Shown piece after piece: positions 18,768 through 37,986 of a stretch of 40,262 bases of DNA. Position 1 is the stretch's first letter. Each line of letters opens with the position of its first letter. Source of the DNA: a virus (taxonomy: Duplodnaviria > Heunggongvirae > Uroviricota > Caudoviricetes); IMG/VR virus record IMGVR_UViG_3300026289_000086. The stretch is one strand, 5' to 3'. The notes beneath the pieces were generated by a model. It did no database searches. It saw nothing but the letters and a program-made list of their open reading frames with translations, and was not told the DNA's origin. The translations under genes and the position numbers were made by a program.

Positions 18768-18797
18768 ATGAACGCGCTGTCCGGTGCGGCTATCAAG
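18768..18797 (-). promoter_or_regulatory. Repeated promoter-like motif, copy in front of the recombinase operon
   Basis: + strand ATGAACGCGCT-gtccggtgcgg-CTATCAAG; 33 bp from the DUF2924 start at 18735. Confidence 0.7.
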
Positions 18798-19034
18798 GGC
18801 TTTTTGACGCTCATGCAGGCGGAGTACGCCGTGCGCCAGTATTATTGCAATGATGCGAACAGGGTTGATGGGCGAGCTATTGCGAGAGTTGAGTTTGGCA
18901 GTCATGCATGTTTATACGGGGCCACCTCGGATTTCTTCTCAGCCGGCTTGAGAGGTCACGCCTACACGGCGGTGAGAGCCCATTTGGCCACAAAGGGCGT
19001 GCCGCAAGTCATCACAACAACAAGGAGAAATAGG

Positions 19035-21248
19035 GTGGCGAAGACCTTCAAGAACGGCATTTCATTGCATCGGCTGCTCGAGGCCGCGCCGCTGGCGGCA
19101 CTGGCGACATTTCTTGAGACTGCCGACAAGGGTGACTACGCCGCCATCTTCTTCGAATTGCCATGGCAGACCGCCGGCGAGGATAGCGGCAGCGCCGCCC
19201 TCCGCGAACAACTCATCGATCTGGGCAACGAACTCCAAGCCGACGCCGCCGTTCCTCTGGATCGCCACGCACAAAGGATCCTGACCCTGGCGGAAGGTCG
19301 TGGTGTCGAACCCGTCAACCGGGTCGCTGCGAGAATCTTTGAGCAAGCGCATATCGATGCGTTTGACACGCAACTCGATGACCTCGGGCGCAGCCTATGG
19401 CTCTACCAGTACGAACCCGCGCTGTTCGACGAAGCCGAGAGCCTCTTCTATGCTGACCATTACCGCAACTTCGGCGGGATGTACGAGGCCTTCGAGCTCG
19501 ACGCCGACACAGTCGTGGCTTTCGTCTGGGACGACAGCGTCAAACACGCACTGGAAACCCAGATCCAAGAGCGCCTCGAACTGACCGGGCGCTGCACGGT
19601 GACCCATCTGCAGGTTACAGGCAAGGACCAGGCTGGAAAGGAACAGCAGCAGCATCTGGTCATCGTTCGCCATGGCGGGCCGTTGTCCAGTGTGGCCGAG
19701 TTTCGGGAGGCCGATGGCAGCCGAGGGGATCGATACTACCGTCCGCTGAGCGAAGCGACCTTGCTGTTCTCGCCGGACGAGGGTGTTCTCGAAGTGTTCT
19801 CCGCTAGCCCGAGTGTACGCCAGCAGGTGGCCACCTGTTTCGCAGAAACAGGCCTCAAGATCGATCTGTCGGATAGACCTCTAACCCTCAAGCAGTACAA
19901 CTTCAAGCGCTTCTTGACCTCGCTGAACCTGAGCACACCCACTATCGCTGGGTTCGATGTCGATCGGGTCGCAGTGGTGGAAGTCGACGTGCGCCCGGAC
20001 AACCCCAAACATCGCGCTGGCCTCAAGGTCAGCATCAGCGATGATATCGAGGACGTGGCCGAGGCGTTGTTCGGCAAGGATCACTTGTTCAAGCGGGCCG
20101 CCAGCCTCGCTCGGATCGTCATCGCCGTGCGTTACACCCAGTACGGCACCAAGAAATCCAAAACGCTCAACATCACCCTTTCGGAACCGAATCGATGCAA
20201 TCTGCGCAGCAACCGGGATCCGGTACAGCGGGAGTTGGGCTACGCCCTTCTGACGGCCTGGGGCGTCCTACATCAGGTCAAGCCGCTCACGCTGGTTCAG
20301 GAACACGTTCTACTTCCGGCACTGCTGCAGTTATTTGATCAGACCAAAAAGGAGGTGCCAGGGCAGTTCTTCCTCACCCGCGGACTCGATCCCGAGGCGC
20401 TGCTGGATGGCGGCTTTATCGAACCGCGTGGCCGCTACGTCAGCTTGTTGCTGGACGAGGATGGCACTACTCACGAGGTCAACGTCCGTTCGGCAGGTAA
20501 GCCCGGCGTGATCGCCTACGACCATCCGAAGGACGGGAGCACTGTCGAATTGCCAGCGTCGGCTGCCGACAAATACGCGATCAGGCGGGACTGGCTCGAT
20601 GAGATCGTCCTCAAACGCCTCAAGGCGCCCCTGGTCAGTGCCGAGTTGATCAAACTTGACGAAAACCTCACCTACCTCGGCAAGATCAAGCTCGGGGCAG
20701 AAGCTGCGCCTTGCTACCTGGCTCGTGATCTAAGGTCGCCGACGACCCTGCAGCGTCTCGATATCCTGATGCGTGCCCGAAGCGACAAAGGCGTGGGCCT
20801 GGTGCTCTCGGCAGGTCGAGACCACCCCTTATGCCTGGGGCCGAACGTTATCGCAGCGGTAGCCGATCACTTGGCCACCAGTGATCAGGAGTCGTCCCTC
20901 GACATCAACAGGCTGGCAAGCGTTTTCACGCAGGGCAAGCAACTGGCGCGCGGCGGAATGGTCGTAGCTCTGGTCAAGAAGGACAACTACAGTGCGACGC
21001 TCTACATCCCCGGCAAACCGTCACTCGCGTTGGTCGGAGTCAAAGCGATCGGCTTTTTCCAGGCCCTGGTCGATGCCTATCACAAGGGATCACCTGCCGT
21101 GCCTACCAAGCAGTTGATGAGTGCTGCGGGATCCTTGTCGCCCAGCCCGCGCCAGCTCTTGGGCAACGAGTTCTGGTCATCCGTCGAGGTCGTTTACGTG
21201 GGATTTCCACCCGGGGTCAAGCGAGGCAGCTACCAGTTGCTGGTGTAG
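19035..21248 (+). CDS. Large hypothetical protein, 737 aa, in the position of the immunity region
   Basis: AAGGAG at 19022-19027 before GTG 19035 (MAKTFKNGISLHRLL…); long ORF with host-like codon usage; no catalytic motif recognised. Confidence 0.8.
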   Translation: MAKTFKNGISLHRLLEAAPLAALATFLETADKGDYAAIFFELPWQTAGEDSGSAALREQLIDLGNELQADAAVPLDRHAQRILTLAEGRGVEPVNRVAARIFEQAHIDAFDTQLDDLGRSLWLYQYEPALFDEAESLFYADHYRNFGGMYEAFELDADTVVAFVWDDSVKHALETQIQERLELTGRCTVTHLQVTGKDQAGKEQQQHLVIVRHGGPLSSVAEFREADGSRGDRYYRPLSEATLLFSPDEGVLEVFSASPSVRQQVATCFAETGLKIDLSDRPLTLKQYNFKRFLTSLNLSTPTIAGFDVDRVAVVEVDVRPDNPKHRAGLKVSISDDIEDVAEALFGKDHLFKRAASLARIVIAVRYTQYGTKKSKTLNITLSEPNRCNLRSNRDPVQRELGYALLTAWGVLHQVKPLTLVQEHVLLPALLQLFDQTKKEVPGQFFLTRGLDPEALLDGGFIEPRGRYVSLLLDEDGTTHEVNVRSAGKPGVIAYDHPKDGSTVELPASAADKYAIRRDWLDEIVLKRLKAPLVSAELIKLDENLTYLGKIKLGAEAAPCYLARDLRSPTTLQRLDILMRARSDKGVGLVLSAGRDHPLCLGPNVIAAVADHLATSDQESSLDINRLASVFTQGKQLARGGMVVALVKKDNYSATLYIPGKPSLALVGVKAIGFFQALVDAYHKGSPAVPTKQLMSAAGSLSPSPRQLLGNEFWSSVEVVYVGFPPGVKRGSYQLLV

Positions 21249-21280
21249 ACCAGCGGGGTTACGTCCAACACTCATCCAGC

Positions 21281-21304
21281 AGGCCGCCTTGAGCGGCCTT
21301 TTTT
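21281..21304 (+). terminator. Intrinsic terminator
   Basis: AGGCCGC-CTTGA-GCGGCCT-TTTTT. Confidence 0.8.
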
Positions 21305-21411
21305 GTGCCTGCGGGATTCAAGCCAAGCAGCGCCGATCTGGGTGCCGAGCGCCATCTCACTTACGTCTCAATTAACGGCGTAGAGCATCTCACGTCCCGT
21401 GAGAAGAATGG

Positions 21412-21438
21412 GTAACTCCTAAACGAACAAGGAGTTAC
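21412..21438 (+). promoter_or_regulatory. 9-bp hairpin sequestering the SD of the sigma-like gene
   Basis: GTAACTCCT 21412-21420 / AGGAGTTAC 21430-21438 perfect stem; GTG start at 21442. Confidence 0.6.
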
Positions 21439-21441
21439 ACC

Positions 21442-22005
21442 GTGCCACTCGATAGCACTTACTTCAAATCGGCCATCAATGCGGCGGCCGCCAGAGCATA
21501 CCAGATGGCAACCCGCTTCGGACTCTCGCACGCCGACCGGGAGGATCTCCACCAGGAACTGCTGCTCGACCTGCTGGAGCGTGCCGAACAGTTCGACCCA
21601 GACAAAGGCAGCGCCGGGACCTTTACCGGAATGCTCTCCAAGCATCGGGCGTCTGAGTTCCTGTACCGACTAACGAAGGACCGTTGGCGTCTGAGTTTTT
21701 GCTCCGGGAATGAGCCGGACGAGGGCGCGACAGATCCTCTCGATGCACTGGCGGACACCGACGCCGTGCTCCCCCAGTGGGGCGAAGTCACCAACGGCTT
21801 TGACGAACTTCATTTCGCTCGCGACCTCGACCACGCCCTCAGCCGGATGGACGACGAGCAGCGAGCGCTGTTCTCCCTGCTCCTTGAGCATCAGGACACG
21901 CCCAGCGCCTGCGAGGCGTCCAGCGTTTCGTCCGCCACTTTCTACCGCCGCCTCACCGATCTGAAGATGCATCTGCGCATGTTCGGCATTAAGGCGGCGG
22001 CCTGA
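21442..22005 (+). CDS. ECF-like sigma70-family factor (region 2- and region 4-like), 187 aa
   Basis: DREDLHQELLLDLLE…FDPDKGSAGTF (region 2-like); ALSRMDDEQRALF…SVSSATFYRRL (region 4 HTH-like). Confidence 0.72.
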   Translation: MPLDSTYFKSAINAAAARAYQMATRFGLSHADREDLHQELLLDLLERAEQFDPDKGSAGTFTGMLSKHRASEFLYRLTKDRWRLSFCSGNEPDEGATDPLDALADTDAVLPQWGEVTNGFDELHFARDLDHALSRMDDEQRALFSLLLEHQDTPSACEASSVSSATFYRRLTDLKMHLRMFGIKAAA

Positions 22006-22103
22006 TCGTCGCCGCCACACCCTCCTGAGAAAAATTCCCGGTCCCCCGGTAAAAACAATCAGACCCCGCAGCTTTTCTGCTGCGGCCACCTGACGGAGAT
22101 TTG

Positions 22104-22496
22104 ATGAACGCCTTCGATCCCACCTTTGTACTGGGCCAAAGCGAGCCGAACGGCCTCGCGGCCAATTTCGAACGTCCGCTGTACGTACCGGCCACACCGC
22201 TCACCGAGGCCACGCTGTGCGACTGGATCGCCACGTCGCTCGCCGGCGAGCGCATCCAGTACCACCAGGGCCTGCTGCTGGTGGACCGCTCCGACGCAAA
22301 CAGCCCGTATCCGTCCAAGGAGCGCCAGCGCATCCATGCCGTGGCCAAGCGGGCCTGGCACGCCTGCGAACTCGGCCTGGTGCATCTGGTGAGCCAGCGC
22401 GTCGAGCCCTTCGTCTTTCGCTATATCGCGGTTCGCGCACGGATGACCCCCAACGCATCGCAAGTCCGCAAGCAGCTGCTCACCACGGCGCACTGA
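22104..22496 (+). CDS. Conserved phage hypothetical protein
   Basis: GGAG RBS; LCDWIA…IQYHQGLL…ELGLVHLVSQR…YIAV; operon context. Confidence 0.75.
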   Translation: MNAFDPTFVLGQSEPNGLAANFERPLYVPATPLTEATLCDWIATSLAGERIQYHQGLLLVDRSDANSPYPSKERQRIHAVAKRAWHACELGLVHLVSQRVEPFVFRYIAVRARMTPNASQVRKQLLTTAH

Positions 22497-22525
22497 CCCC
22501 TTCACTATCCAAGGAACACGCCCAC

Positions 22526-23293
22526 ATGGCCATTTCGCTCTCCCAACTCACCCGCGCCAGCGCGCCGAAGCCGCCCCGCATCCTGATTCACGGCGTCGCT
22601 GGCGTGGGCAAGACCTCGTTCGCCGCCGGCACCAGCAATCCGGTCTTCATCCAGACCGAAGACGGTCTCGGCACGATCGAGGCCAGCCACTTCCCGATCG
22701 CACGCTCGTTCGAAGAGGTCATCGAGTGCCTGGTCACCCTCTACAACGAGAAGCACGACTTCAAGACGGCGGTGGTCGATAGCGCCGACTGGCTGGAACC
22801 GCTGATCTGGGCGAAGACCTGCAAGGAATACGGCTGGAAGGATCTGGAAGCACCGGGCTATGGCAAGGGCTACCTGGCGACCATGGAGTTCTGGCGGCAG
22901 TACCTCGACGGCCTGAACGCCCTGCGCGACGAGCGTGGCATGACCATCGTGCAGATCGCCCACACCGACATCAAACGCTTCGACAGCCCGGAGCACGACC
23001 CCTACGACCGCTACGTGATCAAGCTGCACACCCGCGCGGCCGCCTTGCTGCAGGAGCACGCCGACATCGTGCTCTTCGCCAATTACCGCATCAGCACCGT
23101 GAAGGCCGACGTCGGCTTCAACAAGAAGGTGAACCGCGCCCTCGGTTCCGGCGAGCGCGTCATCCATACCGCCGAACGCCCGGCTTTCCTGGCCAAGAAC
23201 CGCTACGGCCTGCCCGACACCTTGCCACTCGACTGGTCGGCGTTCGCGCAGGCGATGCCGGATTGCCTGCAAGAAGCGCTCGTCAGTCACTGA
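22526..23293 (+). CDS. AAA ATPase (Sak4/AAA_24-like phage recombination protein)
   Basis: LIHGVAGVGKTS, VVDSADWLE, GYGKGY, IAH, AFLAKNRYGLP. Confidence 0.88.
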   Translation: MAISLSQLTRASAPKPPRILIHGVAGVGKTSFAAGTSNPVFIQTEDGLGTIEASHFPIARSFEEVIECLVTLYNEKHDFKTAVVDSADWLEPLIWAKTCKEYGWKDLEAPGYGKGYLATMEFWRQYLDGLNALRDERGMTIVQIAHTDIKRFDSPEHDPYDRYVIKLHTRAAALLQEHADIVLFANYRISTVKADVGFNKKVNRALGSGERVIHTAERPAFLAKNRYGLPDTLPLDWSAFAQAMPDCLQEALVSH

Positions 23294-23324
23294 ATCCCTG
23301 TTTTTACCGCAACGGAGAACCGCC

Positions 23325-23831
23325 ATGGCCTCATTTGGACACACCTTCGACGCCTCAACCGTCGAACCCACCACCCCCTTCGAAGTCTTTCCGCCCGGCA
23401 AGTACCGGGTGCAGCTCGTCGCCAGCGAAATGCGCCCAACCAAGGACGGCATGGGGCAATACCTGCTCCTCGAACTCGATGTGCTCGAAGGTCAGTACGC
23501 CGGGCGCAAGTTCTTCGACCGCCTGAACCTCGTCAATGCCAACCCTGATGCCGTGCTGATGGCGCAGCGCAGCCTGTCGGCGCTGTGCCGGGCGGCCGGC
23601 AAGATGCAGGTCAGCAACAGCGAGCAACTGCATCTGATCCCGATCCAGATCGACGTCAAGGTGCGCCCGCCGAAGGGACAGTACGGTGAGAGCAACTCGA
23701 TCCGTTACCTGTCGGGCAGCGATACGCAGCCGATGCCGCCGGCCGCGCCAGTCCCTGCGGCCCCGGCCGGCCATGCCCGTGCGGCAAGCCCTGCGGCGCA
23801 AAGCACGCTGCCCTGGAAGCGTCAGGGCTGA
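23325..23831 (+). CDS. DUF669-family (ssDNA-binding-like) protein
   Basis: PPGKYRV…SEMRPTKDG…LELDV…DRLNL; low-complexity tail ending LPWKR. Confidence 0.82.
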   Translation: MASFGHTFDASTVEPTTPFEVFPPGKYRVQLVASEMRPTKDGMGQYLLLELDVLEGQYAGRKFFDRLNLVNANPDAVLMAQRSLSALCRAAGKMQVSNSEQLHLIPIQIDVKVRPPKGQYGESNSIRYLSGSDTQPMPPAAPVPAAPAGHARAASPAAQSTLPWKRQG

Positions 23832-23835
23832 CCCG

Positions 23836-24201
23836 ATGCCGGCTCCCGACTTCATTCCGCTGCCCGACACCGCGTCCACCTGTCGCGAACGTCTGGTCGA
23901 GCTACAGGGCGAGATCGCCTCGATCAAGACCCAGATCGCTACGGCGGACATCGCCCGTCAGGCCCGGCGCGGAGCCCTCGATGCGCAGTGGTTCCACCGG
24001 GCGAAGACGGCGCTGCGTTTCAAGCAGCAGGAGCTTGCTCGGGTGTCAGCACATCTGGCCGCGCTGGCGGGCGATCTCCCTCGGGAGCGCTTCAAGGACA
24101 CGCTGATCGGCGTGCTGCGCGAGCAGCTCCCGGACGACACCTGGCAGTTGGCCCTGGCGGTCGCCCGTGAGCGGCAAGGCAGGGAGGTCGGTCATGGCTG
24201 A
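23836..24201 (+). CDS. Hypothetical coiled-coil phage protein
   Basis: In-operon ORF overlapping the next start by 8 nt; LDAQWFHRAKTALR. Confidence 0.7.
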   Translation: MPAPDFIPLPDTASTCRERLVELQGEIASIKTQIATADIARQARRGALDAQWFHRAKTALRFKQQELARVSAHLAALAGDLPRERFKDTLIGVLREQLPDDTWQLALAVARERQGREVGHG

Positions 24202-25141
24202 CTTGCCTGCCGTCGTCAGTCCGACCCGCGAAGCCATCTTCGCCGCCTACGAGGCCGACGCTCACCAGGGCTTTCGTGCGCACCTGGGTGCTTCGCTGAT
24301 CGGCAAGCCCTGCGAGCGGTCGCTGTGGTACGACTTTCGCTGGACCACCGTCGCGCAGCATCCGGGGCGCTTGTTACGGCTCTTCGAGACCGGGCAGCTG
24401 GAAGAAACCCGCGCCGTCCGCAATCTGCGGCGCACCGGCGCCACCGTGCTCGAAGTCGACCCGGAGACCGGGCGGCAGTGGCGTGTCGAGGCGCACGGTG
24501 GTCACTTCGGTGGCTCGCTCGACGCCGTCGCGCTGAACCTGCTCGAAGCCCCCAAGACCTGGCATGTGCTGGAGTTCAAGACGCACGCGACGAAGAGCTT
24601 CGTCGAACTCGTCGCCAAAGGGGTGCATCAGGCCAAGCCACAGCACGACGCGCAGATGCAGATCTACATGCGGCTCACGACCCTGACACGGGCCATGTAC
24701 CTCGCCGTGAACAAGAACAATGACGACCTCTACATCGAACGCGTCGAACTGGATGCCGATTACGCCGATCGGCTGCTGGCAAAAGCCGCTCGCATCCTCT
24801 TCGCCGCGCGGCCGCTCGACCGGGTCAGCGAGGATCCGGCGTGGTTCGAGTGCCGGATGTGCAGCCATGCCGAGGTCTGCCGGGGTCACGCCGCGGCGGC
24901 AGTGAACTGTCGCACCTGCCTGTCCTCGACACCGGTCGAGGGAGGCTGGTGGTGTGAACGACACCAGCGGGCCTTGTCCGAGGCCGACCAGCGCGCCGGC
25001 TGCGACCAGCATCTCTACCTCCCCGACCTGGTGCCGTGCGAGCAGATCGACGCCGGTACGGACTGGGTCAGCTATCAACTTCCCGGTGGCGAAATCTGGC
25101 GCGACAGCGGCCGCCACAAGTACGCGGAGCATTCGCTATGA
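24194..25141 (+). CDS. PD-(D/E)xK exonuclease (Cas4/YqaJ-like, Cys-rich)
   Basis: GKPCER…GSLD…LEFK…QMQIYM…CRMCSHAEVC…CRTC. Confidence 0.85.
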   Translation: MADLPAVVSPTREAIFAAYEADAHQGFRAHLGASLIGKPCERSLWYDFRWTTVAQHPGRLLRLFETGQLEETRAVRNLRRTGATVLEVDPETGRQWRVEAHGGHFGGSLDAVALNLLEAPKTWHVLEFKTHATKSFVELVAKGVHQAKPQHDAQMQIYMRLTTLTRAMYLAVNKNNDDLYIERVELDADYADRLLAKAARILFAARPLDRVSEDPAWFECRMCSHAEVCRGHAAAAVNCRTCLSSTPVEGGWWCERHQRALSEADQRAGCDQHLYLPDLVPCEQIDAGTDWVSYQLPGGEIWRDSGRHKYAEHSL

Positions 25142-26712
25142 CCCTGACCGTGCGGCCGTACCAACAGGCGGCCATCGATGGCATCTACCAGTATTTTGAG
25201 GGGGAGACCGGAAATCCCCTGGTCATCATCCCGACCGCTGGCGGCAAGTCCCTGGTGATGGCCCGCTTCATCGAAGGCGTGCTGAAAGCGTTTGCGGACC
25301 AGCGCATTCTCGTCGTGACGCACGTCCGCGAGCTGATCGAGCAGAACTACCGCGAACTGATCCGGCTCTGGCCGCAGGCGCCGGCCGGCATCTACTCGGC
25401 GGGACTCAAGCAGCGAGACATCAGGGCGCGCATCCTGTTTGCCGGCATCCAGTCGATCCACAAGCGCGTCTATGACGTGCAGCAGTGCGACTTGGTATTG
25501 ATCGACGAAGCGCACCTGATCCCGCGCTCGTCGAACACCCTGTACCGGCGCTTCCTCGACGGTTTGACGCGCATCAACCCGCTGCTCAAGGTGATCGGTT
25601 TCACGGCCACGCCGTACCGCCTGGACTCCGGACGGCTCCACGAGGGCGATGGCGCGATCTTCACCGACATCGCCTACGAGGTGTCGGTACGCGACCTGAT
25701 CGACCAGGGCTATCTGTCGCCGCTGGTCTCCAAGCGCATGGCGACGCAACTCGATGTCGGCGGCGTGGGCACCCGTGGCGGCGAGTTTATTGCGCGCGAG
25801 TTACACGCCGCTGTCGACCGGGAGGCGATTACCCAAAGTGCCGTGGCCGAGATCGTCGCCTACGGTCAGGATCGCCGCTCGTGGTTAGTCTTCTGCGCCG
25901 GTGTCGAGCACGCGCGACATGTGCGTGACGCGATCCGCACGCAGGGCATCCGGTGCGAGACCATCGTCGGCGAGACGTCCAGCGCCGAGCGCGAGTCGCT
26001 GATCGAGGCCTTCAAGGGCGGCAAGATCCGCTGCCTGACCAACGCCAACGTGCTCACCACCGGTTTCAATGCCCCCGGGGTTGATCTGATTGCGATGCTG
26101 CGACCGACGAAGTCGGCGGGGCTGTACGTGCAGATCGTCGGTCGCGGCTGCCGGCTGGCGCCGGGCAAGAGCGACTGCCTGGTCCTGGACTTCGCCGGCA
26201 ACATCGCCCGTCACGGACCGATCGATGCGATCAAGCCGAAACGTCCCAGCGAGGGCGACGGCGACGCGCCGATCAAGGTGTGCCCGGACTGCGCCAGCAA
26301 CGTTCATGCGGCGGCACGCGAGTGCCCTGAGTGCGGGCACGCCTTTCCCCCGCCCGCGCCAATGATCGAGGCCCGGGCCAGTACGCTCGAGGTGCTCTCA
26401 AGCCTGGTCAAGCCCGAGTGGGTGGCGGTGAGCCAGGTTTGCTACGCACGCCACGAGAAGCCCGGCAAGCCGCCCTCGCTGCGCGTCGAGTACTGGTGCG
26501 GCCTGTCGGCCCATCACGAGTGGATCTGCGTCGAGCATGCCGGCTACCCGCGCCAGAAAGCAGCGACCTGGTGGGCCGCGCGCGCACCCGGTACGGCCTT
26601 ACCGAAAAGCGTCGACGAGGCGCTCCAACACGCACCGGCTTTGCGGCAACCGGCCGAGATCGCGGTCCGCCCGAGCGGGCGCTACACCGAAGTCGTGGCG
26701 GCGCGCTTCTGA
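25138..26712 (+). CDS. DEAD/DEAH-box (SF2) helicase with Zn ribbon
   Basis: PTAGGKS, LIDEAH, TATPYR, LTTGFN, QIVGRG, CPDC…CPEC; ATGA overlap. Confidence 0.92.
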   Translation: MTLTVRPYQQAAIDGIYQYFEGETGNPLVIIPTAGGKSLVMARFIEGVLKAFADQRILVVTHVRELIEQNYRELIRLWPQAPAGIYSAGLKQRDIRARILFAGIQSIHKRVYDVQQCDLVLIDEAHLIPRSSNTLYRRFLDGLTRINPLLKVIGFTATPYRLDSGRLHEGDGAIFTDIAYEVSVRDLIDQGYLSPLVSKRMATQLDVGGVGTRGGEFIARELHAAVDREAITQSAVAEIVAYGQDRRSWLVFCAGVEHARHVRDAIRTQGIRCETIVGETSSAERESLIEAFKGGKIRCLTNANVLTTGFNAPGVDLIAMLRPTKSAGLYVQIVGRGCRLAPGKSDCLVLDFAGNIARHGPIDAIKPKRPSEGDGDAPIKVCPDCASNVHAAARECPECGHAFPPPAPMIEARASTLEVLSSLVKPEWVAVSQVCYARHEKPGKPPSLRVEYWCGLSAHHEWICVEHAGYPRQKAATWWAARAPGTALPKSVDEALQHAPALRQPAEIAVRPSGRYTEVVAARF

Positions 26713-27035: not shown

Positions 27036-27044
27036 GGAGGAGCC

Positions 27045-29363: not shown

Positions 29364-29377
29364 AGGTCGCGAGGAAC

Positions 29378-29564
29378 AACTTCAAAACTTCATAACTTCA
29401 AGCCTTAGATACCCTGTATACCCAGATCTGCCCTCGCGCGCGATCCCGAGAGAGAAGGAGAGAAAAAAACAGGATGTATATTGAATGAATTAAATATTGA
29501 AGTATTTATAGATCTAGCTCTCTCTCTCGGGACACTCCCCTTGAATGAATGAATTATTGAAGTT
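29378..29564. repeat. Origin-like AT-rich repeat region downstream of the primase
   Basis: AACTTCA x3 at 8-bp period (29378, 29386, 29394); 12-bp IR TCCCGAGAGAGA 29444-29455 / TCTCTCTCGGGA 29521-29532; TTGAATGAAT-N4-TATTGAAGT at 29481 and 29541. Confidence 0.7.
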
Positions 29565-29693
29565 ATTGCCGTAGTCCCGTTCTTGCTCTGACCCGTACCC
29601 GATCCCGATCGGGCATGAGGGAGCGCCGAAGACCCTGACCCGGTCGCGTGCACGCTCCTCCAGGCCGCCACTAGCCTTTTGGAGGATTTGCAC

Positions 29694-30963: not shown

Positions 30964-30997
30964 ACATCGAAGGCCTAGCATTTCGTCAGCCTCAAAC

Positions 30998-31077
30998 AAA
31001 AGCGCCTGCCGATCCTCCTCGCCGCAGGCGTTTTTGCATTCTGGCTCGACTTGACCCGCCCCGGTGGCGGGTTTTTG
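30998..31077 (+). terminator. Two tandem terminator-like hairpins
   Basis: AAAAGCGCCTGC…GCAGGCGTTTT 30998-31035; ACCCGCC-CCGGT-GGCGGGT-TTTTG 31054-31076. Confidence 0.65.
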
Positions 31078-31114
31078 CTTTCAGCGCCGCACCCTCCTGG
31101 AACTCCCGAACACC

Positions 31115-32521
31115 ATGCTCAACGTCGAGTACCGCAAGGTCGAGACGCTGATTCCCTGCGCCCGGAATCCGCGTACCCACAACGCCGAGCAGGTGGCCAA
31201 GATCGCCGCCAGCATCGTCGAGTACGGGTGGACCAACCCGATCCTGGTCGATGGCGACAACGGTATCGTCGCCGGTCACGGCCGGCTCGCCGCGGCGCGC
31301 AAGCTGAACCTGGACGATGTGCCGGTCATCGAACTGGCCCACCTCACGCCAACCCAGAAGCGCGCCTATCTCATCGCGGACAACCGCATGGCGCTGGATG
31401 CCGGCTGGGACGACGCCATGCTGGCGCTGGAACTCGAAGACCTGAAGCTGGCCGACTTCGATCTCTCGTTGACCGGATTCGACGCCGACGAGATCGAGGC
31501 CTTGCTGGCTGACAGTCACACCGACGCAGAGCAGCCGGGCGATGGCAACCCGCCCGATGCCGCCGACGATGTGCCCGAGGTTCCGGCCAATCCCGTATCT
31601 CGTCCCGGCGACGTGTGGGCCTTGGGTCAGCATCGCCTGATCTGCGGTGACGCCGCTGACTCTGCCGTGATCACGACGCTGATGGCCGACGAGCAAGCCA
31701 ACCTGCTGTTCACCAGCCCGCCATACGCCAACCAGCGCGCCTACACAACCGGTGGCATCGCCGACTGGGATCGCTTGATGCAGGGCGTCTTCGCCCTGGC
31801 GATGACCGTGATGGCCAGCGCGGCACAGATGCTGGTCAACCTCGGCCTGGTCCATCGCGAAGGCACCGTGGTGCGCTACTGGGACGAATGGCTCACCTGG
31901 ATGCCGCGCCAGGGTTGGCGCTTCTTCGGCTGGTACGTCTGGGACCAGGGCGTGACCGTTCCTGGCGATTGGGCCGGCCGACTCGCACCGCGCCACGAGT
32001 TCCTCTTCCACTTCAATCGCGAGGCGCGGAAGCCGAACAAGATCGTACCGTGCAAGTTCGCGGGTCAGGACAAGCATCTGCAGGCCGACGGCAGCAGCAG
32101 CGGCGGGCTGCGTACCAGGGAAGGCGAGCGTACCGGCTGGAACCATGCCGGCAAAGTGACGCAGGAGTTTCGCATTCCGGACTCGGTGGTGACCGCTACC
32201 CGCCAGCGCGGATCGATCGGCGAGGGGATCGACCACCCCGCCGTCTTCCCCATCGCCCTTCCGGAGTTCATCCTCGAGGCCTACTCCGACACCGGCGACC
32301 TCGTCTTCGAGCCCTTCTGCGGTTCAGGAACGACGATGCTCGCGGCACAGCGTACCGGCCGCATCGCCCGCTCGGTCGAGATTGCCCCCGAGTACGTCGA
32401 TGTGGCGATCAAGCGCTTCCAGCAGAATTTTGCCGGCGTGCCGGTGACGCTCGTGGCCACCGGCCAGACGTTTGACGAGGTCGCCGACGAACGACTGGGG
32501 AGCGACGATGCTGACCGTTGA
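31115..32521 (+). CDS. ParB-like domain + beta-class amino-methyltransferase (SPPY, probably m4C)
   Basis: NPRTHN…GHGRLAAA (ParB-N); LLFTSPPY before FEPFCGSGTT. Confidence 0.9.
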   Translation: MLNVEYRKVETLIPCARNPRTHNAEQVAKIAASIVEYGWTNPILVDGDNGIVAGHGRLAAARKLNLDDVPVIELAHLTPTQKRAYLIADNRMALDAGWDDAMLALELEDLKLADFDLSLTGFDADEIEALLADSHTDAEQPGDGNPPDAADDVPEVPANPVSRPGDVWALGQHRLICGDAADSAVITTLMADEQANLLFTSPPYANQRAYTTGGIADWDRLMQGVFALAMTVMASAAQMLVNLGLVHREGTVVRYWDEWLTWMPRQGWRFFGWYVWDQGVTVPGDWAGRLAPRHEFLFHFNREARKPNKIVPCKFAGQDKHLQADGSSSGGLRTREGERTGWNHAGKVTQEFRIPDSVVTATRQRGSIGEGIDHPAVFPIALPEFILEAYSDTGDLVFEPFCGSGTTMLAAQRTGRIARSVEIAPEYVDVAIKRFQQNFAGVPVTLVATGQTFDEVADERLGSDDADR

Positions 32522-33767
32522 GCAGTGGCCGATCGACCGCCTGATCGAGTACGCGCGCAACCCTCGCAAGAACGATCATGCCGTCGACCAGATGGCCGCC
32601 GCCATCCAGGAGTTCGGCTTTCGGATCCCCTGTGTCGCCCAGTCCGATGGGCGCCTGGTCGATGGTCACCTGCGCCTGAAGGCGGCGCGCAAGCTCGGGC
32701 TCGACACGGTGCCGGTGATCCTCGCCGACGACCTGACGCCGACGCAGATCAAGGCCTTTCGTCTGCTGGCCAACCGCTCGGCGACCTGGGCCGAGTGGGA
32801 CGAGGATCTGCTGCGCCTCGAACTCGATGAGCTGAAGCTCGACGACTTCGATCTGACACTGACCGGCTTCGATGCCGACCAGCTGCTGGAAATCATGACC
32901 GGCGAGGAGACGACTGCGGCGGGGAACACCGAAGACGACGCCGTGCCGGACGTGCCGGAAACGCCGGTGTCGCGACTGGGTGATGTGTGGGTGCTCGGCA
33001 AGCACCGGCTGCTGTGCGGGGATGCTACACACGAGGACAGCTATCAGGCACTACTCGGCACCGATCACGTGTCGATGCTCTGGCAGGACCCGCCGTACAA
33101 CGTGAACTACGCCAACAGCGCGAAGGACAAAGTGCGCGGCAAGAATCGCGCGATCATCAACGACAACCTGGGTGACGGGTTCCACGATTTCCTGGTGGCG
33201 GCCCTCACCCCGGCGCTGACGCGCTGCAATGGCGCGGTCTACATCGCGATGTCCTCCAGCGAGCTCGACGTGCTGCAGTCAGCGTTCCGCGCCGCGGGTG
33301 GCCACTGGTCGACCTTCATCATCTGGGCGAAGAACACCTTCACGCTGGGCCGCGCCGACTATCAGCGCCAGTACGAGCCGATGCTCTACGGTTGGCCCGA
33401 GGGCGGCAAGCGCCACTGGTGCGGCGACCGTGATCAAGGCGACGTGTGGCAGATCAAGAAGCCCGTCAAGAACGATCTCCATCCGACGATGAAGCCCGTG
33501 GAACTCGTCGAGCGCGCGATTCGCAATTCGAGCCACCCGGGCGATACGGTGCTCGATTGCTTCGGCGGCTCCGGTACCACGCTGATCGCCGCCGAGAAGG
33601 CGGGACGGCAAGCACGGTTGATGGAACTGGACTCCAAGTACGTCGATACCATCGTTCGCCGCTGGCAGGACTACACCGGCAAAAACGCCACCCGGGAGTC
33701 GGATGGCGTTGAGTTTGATGCGGTGTTGGGTCAGGCCGAGAGTGCTTCCTCGGAGATTGCGCAGTGA
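32508..33767 (+). CDS. ParB-like domain + beta-class amino-methyltransferase (DPPY, probably m6A)
   Basis: NPRKND…DGHLRLKAA; WQDPPYNV; HPTMKP; DCFGGSGTT. Confidence 0.92.
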   Translation: MLTVEQWPIDRLIEYARNPRKNDHAVDQMAAAIQEFGFRIPCVAQSDGRLVDGHLRLKAARKLGLDTVPVILADDLTPTQIKAFRLLANRSATWAEWDEDLLRLELDELKLDDFDLTLTGFDADQLLEIMTGEETTAAGNTEDDAVPDVPETPVSRLGDVWVLGKHRLLCGDATHEDSYQALLGTDHVSMLWQDPPYNVNYANSAKDKVRGKNRAIINDNLGDGFHDFLVAALTPALTRCNGAVYIAMSSSELDVLQSAFRAAGGHWSTFIIWAKNTFTLGRADYQRQYEPMLYGWPEGGKRHWCGDRDQGDVWQIKKPVKNDLHPTMKPVELVERAIRNSSHPGDTVLDCFGGSGTTLIAAEKAGRQARLMELDSKYVDTIVRRWQDYTGKNATRESDGVEFDAVLGQAESASSEIAQ

Positions 33768-34111
33768 ATTACAAACCCCGTCAGGTAGGGTAAGCCTTGC
33801 GGGATGCCGGAGTCTTTGCTGGTCCGGCGGTTGATCGTCCAGCCCATCCATTGGGTGATGGCGGCGTGAATCGCCTGCTCGACGTGCTTGCCGACCAGCA
33901 TCTGGTTGCGGACATCATCAGAAAAGTGTCGTCCGTGGCGGCTGTCGAGGAAGAGCCTGACCGATTCGAGAGGCTCGCCGGTAGCGTTGGAGATTGCGGT
34001 CATGGCCAAAAGCCATGCGACTTCGGCATTGTCCTGCATGCCGCCGTAGAAGCCCCAGGCTTCGTTCTCGGTGGCGGGGATCGGGTTGGCGATGGTGTTG
34101 GCGGTGGTCAT
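33731..34111 (-). CDS. Small hypothetical protein (array gene a), 126 aa
   Basis: GGGAG RBS; preceded by a motif copy; ENEAWGFYG…FLDSRHGRHFSDDV. Confidence 0.78.
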   Translation of the reverse strand: MTTANTIANPIPATENEAWGFYGGMQDNAEVAWLLAMTAISNATGEPLESVRLFLDSRHGRHFSDDVRNQMLVGKHVEQAIHAAITQWMGWTINRRTSKDSGIPQGLPYLTGFVIHCAISEEALSA

Positions 34112-34144
34112 GGTGTTTCTCCCGTTTGCGTTGATGACAGAGAC

Positions 34145-34174
34145 ATGATTGCTCTACCACGAACACAAGCCAAG
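34145..34174 (-). promoter_or_regulatory. Repeated promoter-like motif (variant)
   Basis: + strand ATGATTGCTCT-accacgaacac-AAGCCAAG; 34 bp from start 34111. Confidence 0.72.
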
Positions 34175-34202
34175 TGCTTTCTCAATCATTTTGGCAACGC
34201 TT

Positions 34203-34454
34203 TCAGTCTTCCCAAATGGACGTTGCGTCGCGTGCAATCCCGATGCGCGCCCGGTCGTCGTCGCTTGCTGCTTCGAGCACCGCGCTGCCTGTTTTCGTGT
34301 TGACGCCCGCTTTGCCGGTGGCACAGAAAGTCTTGCCGTCGTGGATGATGATGCTCGGCGCCGCCTTGCTGAACTCGATCTGGATGCTCATCATGCCGCG
34401 GTTGCGACCGTTGGTATCGGTCACGTTGGTCTGGGGGGTGGTCTTGGCGGTCAT
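34203..34454 (-). CDS. Small hypothetical protein (array gene b), 83 aa (MTAKTTPQTNV…)
   Basis: GAGGAG RBS; preceded by a motif copy. Confidence 0.68.
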   Translation of the reverse strand: MTAKTTPQTNVTDTNGRNRGMMSIQIEFSKAAPSIIIHDGKTFCATGKAGVNTKTGSAVLEAASDDDRARIGIARDATSIWED

Positions 34455-34490
34455 GGCATGCTCCTCGGGGTAGTTGGCTGCGACACCCGT

Positions 34491-34520
34491 ATGAACGCGC
34501 TGTTTGATTGACAAGGCAAG
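34491..34520 (-). promoter_or_regulatory. Repeated promoter-like motif
   Basis: ATGAACGCGCT-gtttgattgac-AAGGCAAG; 37 bp from start 34454. Confidence 0.8.
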
Positions 34521-34620
34521 CGCGTTCTCAATCATCGCGGGCCCATGGCGCCTTGGCTTGCACAGACGCGCCGTGTGGCGTCGTCGTGTCGCCGGCGAGT
34601 CCTTGCTTGCCGACGCCGAT

Positions 34621-35000
34621 TCAGCACCACGTCACGCCAGACCGCAGTTCGTGGGCAATCGCCAGCAGGTGAAAGACTTCCTTGAGGCGCCGGACGACAC
34701 CCTCCTGGTCGATGCCCGGGTCGATGACGCGAACGCCCCGCTGGATGGTCGGCTGGCCGTCGATCTCAACGATGCGGGTCGGCCCGCTCTCGTCGGTCGG
34801 TGCGACGGTCTGGATACCCCAGGCCTGATGCAACGCCCGGATGGCCCGTTGACGCAGGCGCGGTAGTTCGGCGAAGTCGATCTCGCCGTAACCCTCGGAG
34901 GTGTCGATGCCCAGCGCGCCCAGCACGATGGCCGCATTGCGATTGTGGAGTAGTTGACCTCGGTTTCGGGCTGCTGGTCGATGCGGATGGTAATGCTCAT
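34621..35000 (-). pseudogene. Small hypothetical protein (array gene c) with an apparent frameshift at ~34945
   Basis: MSITIRIDQQPETEVNYS (after GGGAG RBS) switches frame into NRNAAIVLGALGID…SGVTWC*. Confidence 0.55.
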
Positions 35001-35037
35001 GGTGTGGCTCCCTGGCGTGGTTGGTGGCGACACCTCG

Positions 35038-35067
35038 ATGAACGCGCTGTTTGATTGAGAAGCCAAG
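35038..35067 (-). promoter_or_regulatory. Repeated promoter-like motif
   Basis: ATGAACGCGCT-gtttgattgag-AAGCCAAG; 38 bp from start 35000. Confidence 0.8.
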
Positions 35068-35114
35068 CGCCACGACGATCATTCGCGTGACCCGACGTCT
35101 GGTTCGAGATGGCC

Positions 35115-35342
35115 TCAACCCTGGCTGTCGAGTTGGAAACTGCCCGGGCCGTTGCCTTCGTCGTCGGCGAGGAAGATGAGGGTTCGCTTCTGCCCGTTGG
35201 GCAAGGTAATGACCAGACCGAAGAATTCGTCGCCGCACTCGTCGACGCCGGTCCGGGCAAGGTTGGTGATGGTGCCGCCCAACAGCGGGCGCAGTTGCTG
35301 GAGATGGAAGTCGACGACGGAGGGTGGGGTGCTGGTGGTCAT
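35115..35342 (-). CDS. Small hypothetical protein (array gene d), 75 aa
   Basis: AGGAG RBS; LADDEGNGPGSF; second gene of the unit starting at 35663. Confidence 0.72.
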   Translation of the reverse strand: MTTSTPPSVVDFHLQQLRPLLGGTITNLARTGVDECGDEFFGLVITLPNGQKRTLIFLADDEGNGPGSFQLDSQG

Positions 35343-35390
35343 GACAGACTCCTTTGGTGTACTAGTGGACGACGGGTGCTGGTCATCGGT

Positions 35391-35663
35391 TTAGGCGCCC
35401 CGCAGGACAGTGATGCCGGCCTGCGCCAGGGTCAACGCGGCGCTCGCGAAGATCGTCTCGGCCATCCCGGGGCACGCCTGGGTGTCGTCGAGCAATTCGT
35501 CGACGACTTCGCGAGACCTGGCGCGCATCGCCACGAGTGCCGCCTCGCGCAGTTCGTGGCTGGCGGTCCTGATCTCCGGGCAGAGCCGGATCAGCGTGGT
35601 GAGGGCGGCGGTGGCGAGTTGGTTGCCGAGGGTATCCAGGCTGCTGGTTTGGGTCGGGGTCAT
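35391..35663 (-). CDS. Small hypothetical protein (array gene e), 90 aa (MTPTQTSSLDTLGNQLA…)
   Basis: AGGAG RBS; preceded by a motif copy. Confidence 0.72.
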   Translation of the reverse strand: MTPTQTSSLDTLGNQLATAALTTLIRLCPEIRTASHELREAALVAMRARSREVVDELLDDTQACPGMAETIFASAALTLAQAGITVLRGA

Positions 35664-35695
35664 GGCGGGCTCCTGCGGTGGTTGATGACGATCGT

Positions 35696-35725
35696 ATGAA
35701 CGCGCTGTTCGCTGCTGAAGCCAAG
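35696..35725 (-). promoter_or_regulatory. Repeated promoter-like motif
   Basis: ATGAACGCGCT-gttcgctgctg-AAGCCAAG; 33 bp from start 35663. Confidence 0.82.
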
Positions 35726-35881
35726 CGGAATCACAATCTTCGTCGGCTGGCCCCTGGCGTCGTGACGCTCGCCACCTCCTCGGCGTTGGCCCTGCGGGTT
35801 GCACGGCCGCGCCGTGTGGCGCTTCGACGCCGCCGGTTGACTACTTGGTGCACCGCGCCAGTTCCGGCGCCCAGACGCCAA

Positions 35882-35906
35882 AACGCCCGGTGGCCCGGGC
35901 GTCTGG
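35882..35906 (-). terminator. Terminator hairpin, identical to 37029-37053
   Basis: ACGCCCGG-TGGC-CCGGGCGT, T-run on the - strand, just past the DUF932 stop. Confidence 0.72.
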
Positions 35907-35921
35907 CGAGATGGTTGGCGG

Positions 35922-36911
35922 CTAGGCCACCAATTTCTCCGCCAGCTGGTACGCGTGATCCTTGAACCGGGCGCCCGGGCCAAACCAGGCGGCGTTCAAC
36001 CGGTTGTCCTGGAGGCGGCCCTTCTCGTGGTCGATGTACTCGGTGGTGGCGTTGAGCAGACCCCACAGGGTCTGGTCGGTCGCGTCCTGGTGGCCGCCGA
36101 TCATCTCGCCGGCAAAGAGTTCGAGGATGCGGCGGTAGCCCTTGGACTTCCTGACCTGCTCAGGCGTGTAACTCTGCCCGTAGGGCATGAAGGGCTGGAA
36201 CAAGTCCTGCAGCCAGCCATCGGTTTCGAGATCGGTCAGTTTCCGGCCGGCCATCAGCCCGGCCTTCTGCTGGAACTCGTCCCATGCGTCCAGCGCGATG
36301 CCCAGGTCCGCCCGGACCGCTTTGGCATCGAAGATCGCCTGGTGCGAGATCGTCACCTGACGCTGCGCATCCCGGTTGCGCAGGGAGGCCTGCAGCGTGT
36401 TGTTGCACACGACCCGAATCGTCGTAAACCGCGCCACGGTCGCCATCGTGCCGTCGTAGGAGGTCGCCAGCAGCAGGTAGGGCGCGACTTCGTCGTCCAG
36501 GATGCGGGCGTTCTTGCCAACGCGCCCCAGTGCCCAGATGCGCCGGCCATTCATCAGAGCGCCGACGGTCTCGATGCGGAACTGCTTGGCCTCGGCCAAC
36601 GCACCGAAGAAGTTGAGAATGTCCGCCGGCTGGACCACCTGGTAGTCGGACGAGACGACCGACAAGGGTGCGCCACAGTCGCTGCGGTACAGCACGTGCT
36701 TGTCGGCAAAGGACTCGCGCTGGTTCGTGACGGTGCTGTCGAACTGGACCTCGGCCTTGAGGGCGCGCCATTCGAGCTGCGCGGCCTTCTGCCAGACCTC
36801 GACGCTGGCCTCGGGATCGACCGTTTGCCCGAGCCCGTGCCAGGGGACATCGGTGTCCGTGGCGTAGGCGATGGCGGCTTGGCCGGTGGTGAAGTCGATC
36901 TGGTGTGCCAT
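35922..36911 (-). CDS. DUF932-family (phage/plasmid TIGR03299-like) protein
   Basis: PWHGLG…LYRSD…VVSSDYQVVQP…SYDGT…RVVCNNTL…TLWGLLNATTEY; AAGGAG RBS. Confidence 0.88.
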   Translation of the reverse strand: MAHQIDFTTGQAAIAYATDTDVPWHGLGQTVDPEASVEVWQKAAQLEWRALKAEVQFDSTVTNQRESFADKHVLYRSDCGAPLSVVSSDYQVVQPADILNFFGALAEAKQFRIETVGALMNGRRIWALGRVGKNARILDDEVAPYLLLATSYDGTMATVARFTTIRVVCNNTLQASLRNRDAQRQVTISHQAIFDAKAVRADLGIALDAWDEFQQKAGLMAGRKLTDLETDGWLQDLFQPFMPYGQSYTPEQVRKSKGYRRILELFAGEMIGGHQDATDQTLWGLLNATTEYIDHEKGRLQDNRLNAAWFGPGARFKDHAYQLAEKLVA

Positions 36912-36948
36912 GGTGTTTCTCCTTCGTGGTGTGGTTGATGACGATCAT

Positions 36949-36978
36949 ATGAACGCGCTGTGCCCAACACAAGCCAAG
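36949..36978 (-). promoter_or_regulatory. Repeated promoter-like motif
   Basis: ATGAACGCGCT-gtgcccaacac-AAGCCAAG; 38 bp from start 36911. Confidence 0.82.
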
Positions 36979-37028
36979 CGATTTTTTAGTCCTCTGTCGT
37001 TTATCTTCGCCGTGGCTCCAAACGCAAG

Positions 37029-37053
37029 AACGCCCGGTGGCCCGGGCGTCTGG
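37029..37053 (-). terminator. Terminator hairpin, identical to 35882-35906
   Basis: AACGCCCGGTGGCCCGGGCGTCTGG just past the stop at 37069. Confidence 0.68.
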
Positions 37054-37068
37054 TGATGCTGTGGCGAC

Positions 37069-37260
37069 TCACACCATGTGGCGTGGGTCGCCGGTCAGGA
37101 TTTCGAGCCAGTCCATGACGTAGTGCTCGCCGGAGACGCCTTGGGTGCGCACCTGGCGCACGCGCTTCATGGTGAGATTCCACTCCTCGGCAATGCCGCG
37201 GATCGTCTTGTGATGCTTGCGCATGAGGTGCTGGATGGTTTGGGCGCTGAGGGTGTTCAT
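37069..37260 (-). CDS. Small HTH-like hypothetical protein (array gene g), 63 aa
   Basis: AGGAG RBS; TIRGIAEEWNLTMKRVRQVR; preceded by a motif copy. Confidence 0.72.
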   Translation of the reverse strand: MNTLSAQTIQHLMRKHHKTIRGIAEEWNLTMKRVRQVRTQGVSGEHYVMDWLEILTGDPRHMV

Positions 37261-37292
37261 GGTGGTCTCCTGCTGGCGTTGATGACGATCGT

Positions 37293-37322
37293 ATGAACGC
37301 GCTGTCTGGCGCCGAAGCCAAG
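37293..37322 (-). promoter_or_regulatory. Repeated promoter-like motif
   Basis: ATGAACGCGCT-gtctggcgccg-AAGCCAAG; 33 bp from start 37260. Confidence 0.82.
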
Positions 37323-37377
37323 CTTTTCGTCAATCTTTTTCGGGGCGGCTGGATGTTTCCAACCACCCCTTCGGTGA

Positions 37378-37899
37378 CTACCCAATGTGGTAGATGCGCT
37401 CACCACCCTGGGGTTTCTCCGAGGTGATGGTCAGCCCGAGCTTCTTCTTGAACGCGCCGGCAAACGCGCCTCGCACGGTGTGCGACTGCCAGCCGGTGGA
37501 TGCGCAAATTTGCGCAATTGTCGCGCCCTCGGGGCGTTTGAGCAGGGCGATCACCGCCGCCTGCTTGCTGTTCTCGCGGGTGCGGGGTTTCACCGTCGTC
37601 GCTTGCTTCTCGGCCACCCATTGCGCCTCGGTGGCCGCCAGGGCGGCTTCGACCTCCGGGTCGGGATGCGTGGTCGGCAGTGCCGGCGGGGTGCGCCCCA
37701 GGGCGTCGTAGCCAACCGGCGAGATGAACCAGTCAGCGTCGCTGCCGGTGATGAGGGCTTTGTTGCAGAGGCCCTCGATCACCTTCTTGCGGGCGCCGCC
37801 CTTGACGTTGTCGGGGAACCAATTGACACGGCCATCGGGTTGCTCGGCAGCCTGTTCGAGGACCAGGCGCTGGGTGTCGGTGAGTGCGGTGCGGGTCAT
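37378..37899 (-). CDS. DUF3489-family protein
   Basis: ENSKQAAVIALLKRPEGATIAQI…TGWQSHTVRGAFAG…KKKLGL; AAGGAG RBS. Confidence 0.85.
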   Translation of the reverse strand: MTRTALTDTQRLVLEQAAEQPDGRVNWFPDNVKGGARKKVIEGLCNKALITGSDADWFISPVGYDALGRTPPALPTTHPDPEVEAALAATEAQWVAEKQATTVKPRTRENSKQAAVIALLKRPEGATIAQICASTGWQSHTVRGAFAGAFKKKLGLTITSEKPQGGERIYHIG

Positions 37900-37933
37900 G
37901 GCGATCTCCTTGATCGGGGTTGATGACGAGCAC

Positions 37934-37963
37934 ATGAACGCGCTGTTCAATCACGAAGCCAAG
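37934..37963 (-). promoter_or_regulatory. Repeated promoter-like motif
   Basis: ATGAACGCGCT-gttcaatcacg-AAGCCAAG; 35 bp from start 37899. Confidence 0.82.
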
Positions 37964-37986
37964 TCCTGCCAACCAGAAAGACGCGA

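Follow-up and report, generated by a model that had tools for sequence, protein, structure and literature searches.

A conserved two-part motif, most likely a promoter-leader cassette, precedes the recombinase genes and accessory genes of AcaML1-like prophages

Background

The lambda CII regulon comprises the promoters pRE, pI and paQ, at which CII sites of the form TTGC-N6-TTGC surround a poor -35 element. In T4-type phages, PeSL cassettes are repeated regulatory cassettes that stand before small non-essential genes in a plastic region, and recombination between the copies adds or removes genes (Arbiol et al. 2010, PMC2839356). We analysed a two-part motif that occurs eight times in a 40,262-nucleotide stretch of DNA (referred to as the window) from a virus of the Caudoviricetes, IMG/VR record IMGVR_UViG_3300026289_000086. 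Judged by its gene order and sequence, both of which resemble those of Acidithiobacillus phage AcaML1, the element that hosts the motif is an AcaML1-like prophage. The motif is most likely a promoter-leader cassette, as predicted from sequence, and it heads both the recombinase operon and an array of accessory genes.

The likeness to lambda CII would lie in one input for the integrase promoter and for other promoters that point against the lytic genes; the letters, however, are unrelated and a CII-like gene was not identified. With PeSL the motif shares a repeated cassette before accessory open reading frames (seven units in the window), gain and loss of genes at the copies and, in some units, terminator-like stem-loops. 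The two differ in that PeSL promoters are strong and sigma-70-like whereas the motif fails a sigma-70 -10 comparison, and in that the motif is found in temperate phages, also heads a recombinase operon and is conserved across hosts of several orders. PeSL cassettes are also described as having active promoters and terminators and as giving rise to mini-circles, whereas the promoter role of the motif is predicted from sequence.

Eight copies of fixed geometry in the window

A search of the window for CTTGGCTT-N11-AGCGCGTTCAT with up to three mismatches, for which shuffled sequences give 0.01 expected matches, returned seven matches, all on the (-) strand, at 34145, 34491, 35038, 35696, 36949, 37293 and 37934. 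Five of the seven are exact; the copy at 34491 carries CTTGCCTT as its first box, and the second box of the copy at 34145 is AGAGCAATCAT (three mismatches). An eighth copy, at 18768-18797 (-), reads CTTGATAG-N11-AGCGCGTTCAT and so has an exact second box, a sequence that occurs seven times on the (-) strand of the window and never on the (+) strand. The spacer is 11 nt in all eight. The pattern search and the second-box count thus agree with an earlier reading of the DNA from its letters and open reading frames (the sequence-only reading), which had claimed an eight-copy (-) strand motif with a constant 11-bp spacer. That reading had also placed each copy close to a start codon with a ribosome-binding site. 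This stood for all eight copies, each with a GGAG-type site and with 32-37 nt between the CAT of box 2 and the start codon (33-38 bp in that reading). The copies and the genes that follow them are listed below by coordinates and strand, with protein lengths in amino acids (aa).

37934..37963 (-): motif copy 1, exact; precedes the DUF3489 gene
37378..37899 (-): DUF3489 protein, 173 aa, two predicted tandem winged-helix domains (Pfam E 1e-32)
37293..37322 (-): motif copy 2, exact; precedes the 63-aa gene
37069..37260 (-): 63-aa gene, no known family
37029..37050 (-): terminator-like hairpin with a T-run, 3' of the 63-aa gene
36949..36978 (-): motif copy 3, exact; precedes DUF932
35922..36911 (-): DUF932 protein, 329 aa (Pfam E 2e-51)
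about 35884-35905: hairpin 3' of DUF932, near-identical to that at 37029..37050
35696..35725 (-): motif copy 4, exact; precedes the pair of 90-aa and 75-aa genes
35115..35663 (-): one unit of a 90-aa gene (35391-35663) and a 75-aa gene (35115-35342), the latter without a copy of its own
35038..35067 (-): motif copy 5, exact; precedes a gene that is frameshifted in the window
34632..35000 (-): the frameshifted gene, out of frame after about 18 codons
34491..34520 (-): motif copy 6, first box CTTGCCTT; precedes the 83-aa gene
34203..34454 (-): 83-aa gene, no known family
34145..34174 (-): motif copy 7, second box AGAGCAATCAT; precedes the 126-aa gene
33731..34111 (-): 126-aa gene, phrog_8020, an array anchor conserved in all relatives
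18768..18797 (-): motif copy 8, first box CTTGATAG, second box exact; precedes the DUF2924-recombinase genes
18295..18735 (-): DUF2924 protein, 146 aa (Pfam E 1e-47)
16961..18451 (-): large serine recombinase, 496 aa, with Resolvase, Recombinase and Zn_ribbon_recom domains

The array had been described as a battery of eight small genes. It does hold eight genes, but they stand behind seven predicted promoters and one of them encodes the 329-aa DUF932 protein; all of the array proteins were assigned to families of unknown function. Clear hairpins with T-runs are found 3' of only two array units (the 63-aa gene and DUF932), and Rfam gave no match at the gathering score within 16900-40262.

Several features surround the boxes. 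Upstream of box 1 lies an A-rich stretch in which conservation is highest over roughly the last eight bases, and the base directly 3' of box 1 is C, a feature common to the copies. The leader is rich in C and A, with (G/A)TCATCAAC or GTCGC..CAAC. The spacer word GAAC, which the sequence-only reading had taken as part of a half-palindrome, is present in only two of the eight window copies, yet it is conserved at 69-91% per position in 333 relatives and often ends the spacer. The claim that the motif heads leftward genes holds within the window but not among relatives, some of which have their distant copy reversed, heading a small gene at the far end of the prophage. The rule is therefore 'upstream of a gene' and not 'leftward'.

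Conservation across a phage family

Whole-genome counts were taken from the nearest genome (G001), in which a looser pattern has 13 exact matches; every one of them lies in one of two or three related prophages, and a control with the reversed pattern has none. The motif is thus specific to the element, as had been proposed; it did not prove to be a widespread host promoter class, the matches in this genome being confined to prophages. In a family sample of 151 genomes the looser pattern CTTG-N15-AGCGCGTTCAT occurs in 32, typically in clusters and spread over many genera. The same 19 letters were found in at least 120 genome stretches and at least 120 IMG/VR viral contigs. Among the genome matches listed are Rhodocyclaceae, Burkholderiaceae, Lysobacterales, Methylococcaceae, Thiomonas, Cupriavidus and Ralstonia, together with a handful of unusual bins or genomes, for example Nitrospira defluvii. 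In three genomes the exact motif is accompanied by neither DUF2924 nor DUF3489, and the downstream gene was decayed in both of the two inspected.

Four exact copies are also present in AcaML1 (JX507079.1): its DUF2924-recombinase genes are preceded by one, and its leftward array contains the other three. These copies (3044 in L270; 9432, 10110 and 11242 in L029) are overlapped by the deposited genes for Gp5, Gp30/31 and Gp33, the last named 'terminase small subunit'. The leftward array of AcaML1 is probably several promoter-headed units and not one packed operon.

To which genes the motif belongs was established by a census of downstream genes (333 complete open reading frames from 387 motif sites, with 19 fixed bases scored and no deduplication). 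The largest classes are DUF2924 (76), DUF3489 (68), DUF6900 (54) and the 126-aa family (51), and the remainder include many rare small genes. Because the census returns the same gene classes, the link between recombinase operon and accessory array, which the sequence-only reading had drawn from the window and which is seen in many phages including AcaML1, is a family trait and not a peculiarity of this DNA. The association also holds when loci are selected without regard to the motif: of 79 DUF3489 genes chosen by protein alone (52-66% identity), 68 are preceded by a motif that is perfect at 19/19 positions, and in front of two others it has one mismatch. Natural variants are AGCGCGTGAAT, AGCGCCTTCAT, AGAGCGTTCAT and AGCGCGTTACT, in addition to the AGAGCAATCAT of the window. 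Across 333 non-redundant instances the spacer holds only 0.2-0.4 bits of information per position, so copying alone does not explain the fixed boxes.

The cis-element is real, strongly selected and specific to this phage family. It is apparently undescribed: literature searches on the motif strings returned unrelated primers only, and those on AcaML1, DUF3489, DUF2924 and DUF932 returned nothing about promoters. Two other roles were considered and rejected. A divergent small open reading frame (MNAL...) beginning at the ATG complementary to the CAT of box 2 would lose that ATG in the variants GTTAGT, GTTACT and GTGAAT, and an attP site does not fit because the prophage continues upstream of DUF2924.

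A proposed portable promoter-plus-leader cassette

We consider it somewhat more probable than not that the large AcaML1-like temperate phage family has a portable promoter-plus-leader cassette of its own, with the motif as its core. The promoter reading is preferred because position, strand and constant distance to the start codon all fit it; some copies lie directly downstream of terminator hairpins. From 5' to 3', the cassette would consist of an A-rich, UP-like stretch, a -35-like box 1 (TTGGCT here), a spacer of 11 nt that closes with (G)AAC, box 2 (AGCGCGTTCAT) at the -10 position, a C/A-rich leader, a ribosome-binding site and the start codon, with transcription beginning a few bases after CAT. 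Host RNA polymerase would recognize box 1 and the A-tract, and box 2 would need, or be gated by, an additional factor, for which DUF2924 is the first candidate among the element proteins and the local sigma factor is not. The recombinase and the cassettes would then respond to one input. As to history, the promoter of the DUF2924-serine recombinase genes would have been copied before each accessory cassette in the AcaML1-like clade, and the copies would also act as joints at which cassettes are gained and lost by recombination. Box 1 agrees with TTGACA at four of six positions in TTGGCT and at five of six in the TTGATA of the 18768 copy, and is thus -35-like.

Candidates for the protein that reads the motif

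The strict conservation of the motif implies a conserved, so far unnamed reader. The sequence-only reading had put forward, among other possible regulators, the sigma factor that the prophage itself encodes, which resembles the extracytoplasmic function (ECF) type:

21442..22005 (+): ECF-like sigma gene (Sigma70_r2 E 2e-7; phrog_1740)

ECF sigma promoters include those of the GGAAC-N16/17-CGT type. Like these, the motif is two-part, highly specific and unlike a sigma-70 promoter, and some copies have a GAAC at positions 16-19 followed by C-N-Y-C at 36-39, a pairing similar to GAAC-N16-CGTC. The most conserved letters of the motif lie elsewhere, however. The word GAAC-N16/17-CGTC is not common to all copies, with GAAC at the 69-91% given above and C-N-Y-C only partly present, and in the 76 copies of the DUF2924 type the ribosome-binding site sits where an ECF promoter would have its transcription start. 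A homologue of the sigma occurs in only 1 of the 151 family genomes (52% identity), compared with the 32 that have the motif. Searches for Pfam Sigma70_r2 in five other motif-bearing genomes found matches only far from the motif-bearing elements, and AcaML1, with its four exact copies, has no annotated sigma in the inspected 29 kb of its record (1-29476). The local sigma does not co-occur with the motif across relatives and is excluded as its general reader; that it reads these promoters is very improbable and, as a general mechanism, largely refuted.

Two other element proteins were set aside. The 737-aa protein encoded next to the DUF2924 operon is present in AcaML1 (Gp6) and in some relatives; it is not universal, and in four array-bearing elements it is not near DUF2924. 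A conserved 174-aa neighbour was rejected as a regulator because our own reading of its sequence finds RuvC-like resolvase motifs.

The reader might instead be supplied by the host, as an alternative sigma or transcription factor common to Burkholderiales, Xanthomonadales, Methylococcales and Acidithiobacillus, with no phage factor involved. The same letters do recur among phages that differ considerably in their early and regulatory modules and whose hosts belong to several orders, and a universal phage regulator was not found. Against this, promoters of the sigma-54, sigma-32, sigma-28 and sigma-E classes were rejected on spacing or key letters, judged against their consensus sequences (for sigma-32, the motif spacing is 4-5 bp too long). 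The nearest genome also showed the motif only in prophage contexts, and other DUF2924 clades use other letters. We regard a purely host-encoded reader as quite improbable.

DUF3489 and DUF2924 both look DNA-binding on the basis of predicted structures, and both are only candidate readers. An AlphaFold2 (AF2) model of DUF3489 has two winged-helix domains and a linker (predicted local distance difference test score, pLDDT, of 80), and Foldseek relates it to ArsR/MarR-type winged helices with a probability of 0.97-0.99 but weakly (E>0.02). DUF3489 was not found in the seven motif-bearing genomes in which it was sought. DUF2924 is present in every intact element examined and always precedes a large serine recombinase. 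Its AF2 model (pLDDT 74) has a helical N-terminal domain and a beta-rich C-terminal domain, the latter weakly similar (Z 5.5-5.7) to the CcrM C-terminal and MPND DNA-binding domains. A complex prediction for recombinase and DUF2924 scored 0.26, below the mark for a verdict.

These two proteins also enter an operator model, in which the boxes are mainly the putative site of an element repressor, DUF2924 or DUF3489, lying over a weak host sigma-70 promoter, with joint silencing or auto-limitation of recombinase and cassettes and their joint release. An asymmetric two-part site with box centres about 20.5 bp apart would suit a two-domain protein, and both candidates are predicted to have two domains with DNA-binding-like folds. 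Conservation of the boxes is far above what RNA polymerase usually requires, and two related proviruses carry the same AGAGCG variant both in the DUF2924 promoter and in a copy 14-17 kb from it. The model meets the same difficulties with its candidates as the promoter cassette does (the absences of DUF3489, and a helix that is unchanged where the boxes differ); it largely overlaps with that reading and differs only in the sign of control. We hold it to be possible but unlikely.

Several results weigh against the promoter cassette, or against its candidate readers. A sigma-70 -10 element, a hexamer 16-18 bp downstream of box 1 whose second base is A and whose sixth is T, is not what the motif has: the hexamer at 17 bp is GTTCAT, and across promoter types this position holds (G/C)(T/G)TCAT. 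The hexamer comparison thus agrees with the earlier description of a -35-like first box followed by a poor sigma-70 -10. A scanner based on the sigma-70 consensus found no (-) strand promoter in the array (33500-38900). The RNA data are contigs of four metatranscriptome runs, which show neither transcript starts nor strand and cannot rank genes. With regard to DUF3489, three of the seven genomes that lack it (one of them complete) have the exact motif before intact DUF2924-recombinase genes, and proviruses that have other letters in their DUF2924 promoters nevertheless encode a DUF3489 with the same C-terminal helix. The window DUF2924 is 65-70% identical to proteins of clades with other boxes and 42-45% identical to those of a clade with the same box 2, so box letters do not simply track DUF2924. 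Finally, the fold matches of the candidate readers are weak (Z<6).

From three further features of the RNA contigs nothing was concluded. Summed contig depth is higher over the array and in the DUF2924 bin than over the replication genes, but related prophages add up in this sum; one RNA run covers the array side only; and one 920-nt contig, in one study only, stops 21 nt beyond box 2 of the DUF932 unit.

Putative DUF2924 promoters in other clades

We examined 80 DUF2924 loci from IMG/VR (L361-L440) that were chosen by protein. They share one architecture, consisting of an A-rich stretch, an 8-nt box, N11 and an 11-nt box ending in TCAT, in which the letters are clade-specific. The first type has CTTGATAA with AGCGCGTTCAT or AGAGCGTTAGT, and other clades have CTACACTA-N11-AATGCCGTCAT, CTACACTT-N11-AGCGCCTGCAT or CTCGACTT-N11-AACGCGGTCAT. 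Averaged over these types, positions 2-7 of box 1 read TTGACT, which on our reading is -35-like. When five proviruses were searched with the CTACACTA-type pattern, four had a single copy, before DUF2924, and one had none. The layout persists in other clades, where the letters differ and there is one copy, and the comparison of sequences therefore suggests that the signal probably originated as the promoter of the DUF2924-recombinase operon and spread to cassettes in the AcaML1-like clade.

The promoters of other clades also have a conserved GGAGAAAGTTGC-like word directly upstream of box 1. In three proviruses with CTACACT-type DUF2924 promoters (L441-L443), a DUF3489 gene lies about 15 kb from DUF2924; its protein has a larger N-terminal domain and it is preceded by another conserved word (CGTAGAAGG..CCGCAT). 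The motif of such other-box proviruses was not found in the region upstream of their DUF3489. The CTACACT-type pattern had no match in 301 sampled genomes of the phylum, and DUF2924 DNA of this clade had no match among named phages.

Leaders of DUF2924 units may fold. In them, the start-codon region can base-pair with the CAT of box 2 and the bases after it, and from clade to clade the two arms change in concert (GCA/TGC, GCG/CGC, GG/CC, GCGA/TCGC and GCAACTC/GAGTTGC); five such complementary pairs were seen repeatedly among 44 leaders of DUF2924 units. On average the anchored helix measures 7.05 bp, compared with 6.40 (sd 0.18) in chimeras, a modest excess, and in the DUF2924 leader of the window UCAUGA pairs with UCAUGA over 6 bp only. 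Array copies have no helix excess over the control. An A follows the ATG in 86% of the motif-headed genes. In IS10 and IS50, transcripts that read through from outside are inhibited by fold-back. The likeness to these elements is that, if transcription starts after CAT, only transcripts initiated upstream could form the DUF2924-leader hairpin that hides the start codon; the difference lies in the short helix of the window, the modest excess over chimeras and the lack of any in array copies. Fold-back of the DUF2924 leader is, on this analysis, a lead and not a finding. A bolder proposal, which we think distinctly unlikely, is that DUF2924 is a new promoter-specificity or gating factor acting on box 2 at its own promoter and at every AcaML1-like cassette, with the CAT of box 2 doubling as an anti-start-codon that silences read-through transcripts. 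If true, such gating would tie recombinase expression to a battery of cargo genes.

Turnover of cassettes at motif copies

Comparison of sequences indicates that cassettes are gained and lost at motif copies. In the nearest genome, the second prophage follows the window up to and including DUF3489; one promoter copy comes next and leads directly to the 75-aa gene. This prophage is without window 37257-35352, a loss of 1.9 kb with its junction inside the promoter copy. Among relatives, DUF6900, DUF3489 and the 126-aa gene are kept as anchors and the genes between them vary. Contigs from three RNA runs match the window up to 18838, about 40 nt upstream of the 18768 motif, where unrelated sequence takes over; the DUF2924 module with its promoter is therefore common to related prophages of the community, which differ beyond it.

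Such variable cassette content, junctions at copies and the divergence of contigs just upstream of the 18768 copy are also what would be seen if the repeats were mere recombination joints or remnants of cassette duplication without any role in transcription. Homogenisation by recombination should, however, have kept the spacer as constant as the boxes, whereas only the boxes are fixed and N11 varies. Orientation and distance to the start codon are also fixed, and single copies precede DUF2924 in clades without an array. We give this explanation hardly any credence.

Neighbouring genes and other features

From the left, the element contains the large serine recombinase and DUF2924 (16961-18735, (-)), the orphan 737-aa protein and the ECF-like sigma, followed by AAA_24, DUF669, PD-(D/E)XK, a helicase, a primase-polymerase, the 174-aa protein with RuvC-like motifs and DUF6456. 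Its right part has two ParB-methyltransferase fusions, the leftward array, HNH and terminase. The array order is DUF3489, 63-aa gene, DUF932, 90-aa and 75-aa genes, frameshifted gene, 83-aa gene and 126-aa gene. The frameshifted gene (34632-35000) is intact, at 125-133 aa, in both prophages of the nearest genome; at 34944, two bases are absent from contigs of all four RNA runs, and the frameshift is either real or an assembly error.

On its upstream side, the frame of the 737-aa protein (+) stays open as far as an ATG formed by the reverse complement of the box 2 CAT; a start there would give 826 aa. The GTG at 19035, with AAGGAGA, is the likelier start, and codon use in the extended frame looks non-coding after the first ~25 codons. 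Between the primase-polymerase and RuvC-like genes, positions 29400-29640 are AT-rich and non-coding, with repeated TGAATGAATTA/TTGAAGT words, and may be a replication origin or control region. Window positions 1-16500 are not prophage. They hold a low-GC patch with an Mrr-nSTAND3 protein, and further a 1430-aa orphan, pieces of a RecD2-like helicase, DUF6946 and a short-chain dehydrogenase, and a gene for an FlhDC-like regulator lies at 2784-3562, in the neighbouring element.

Implications

AcaML1, a temperate phage carried by Acidithiobacillus caldus ATCC 51756, has been sequenced; the literature describes it as inducible and as infecting a culturable host, and its four exact copies make the question of what reads the motif, and when, directly testable there. 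The motif can serve as a search key for such prophages and their cargo cassettes, and is a potential compact, portable expression signal. The AcaML1-like prophage family is very common and almost unstudied, and includes residents of wastewater and bioleaching bacteria. In phages from several bacterial orders, 19 positions remain identical while neighbouring proteins drift to 50-65% identity. The motif would thereby define a regulon that joins the integration genes to swappable genes of unknown function (DUF3489, DUF6900, DUF932 and others).

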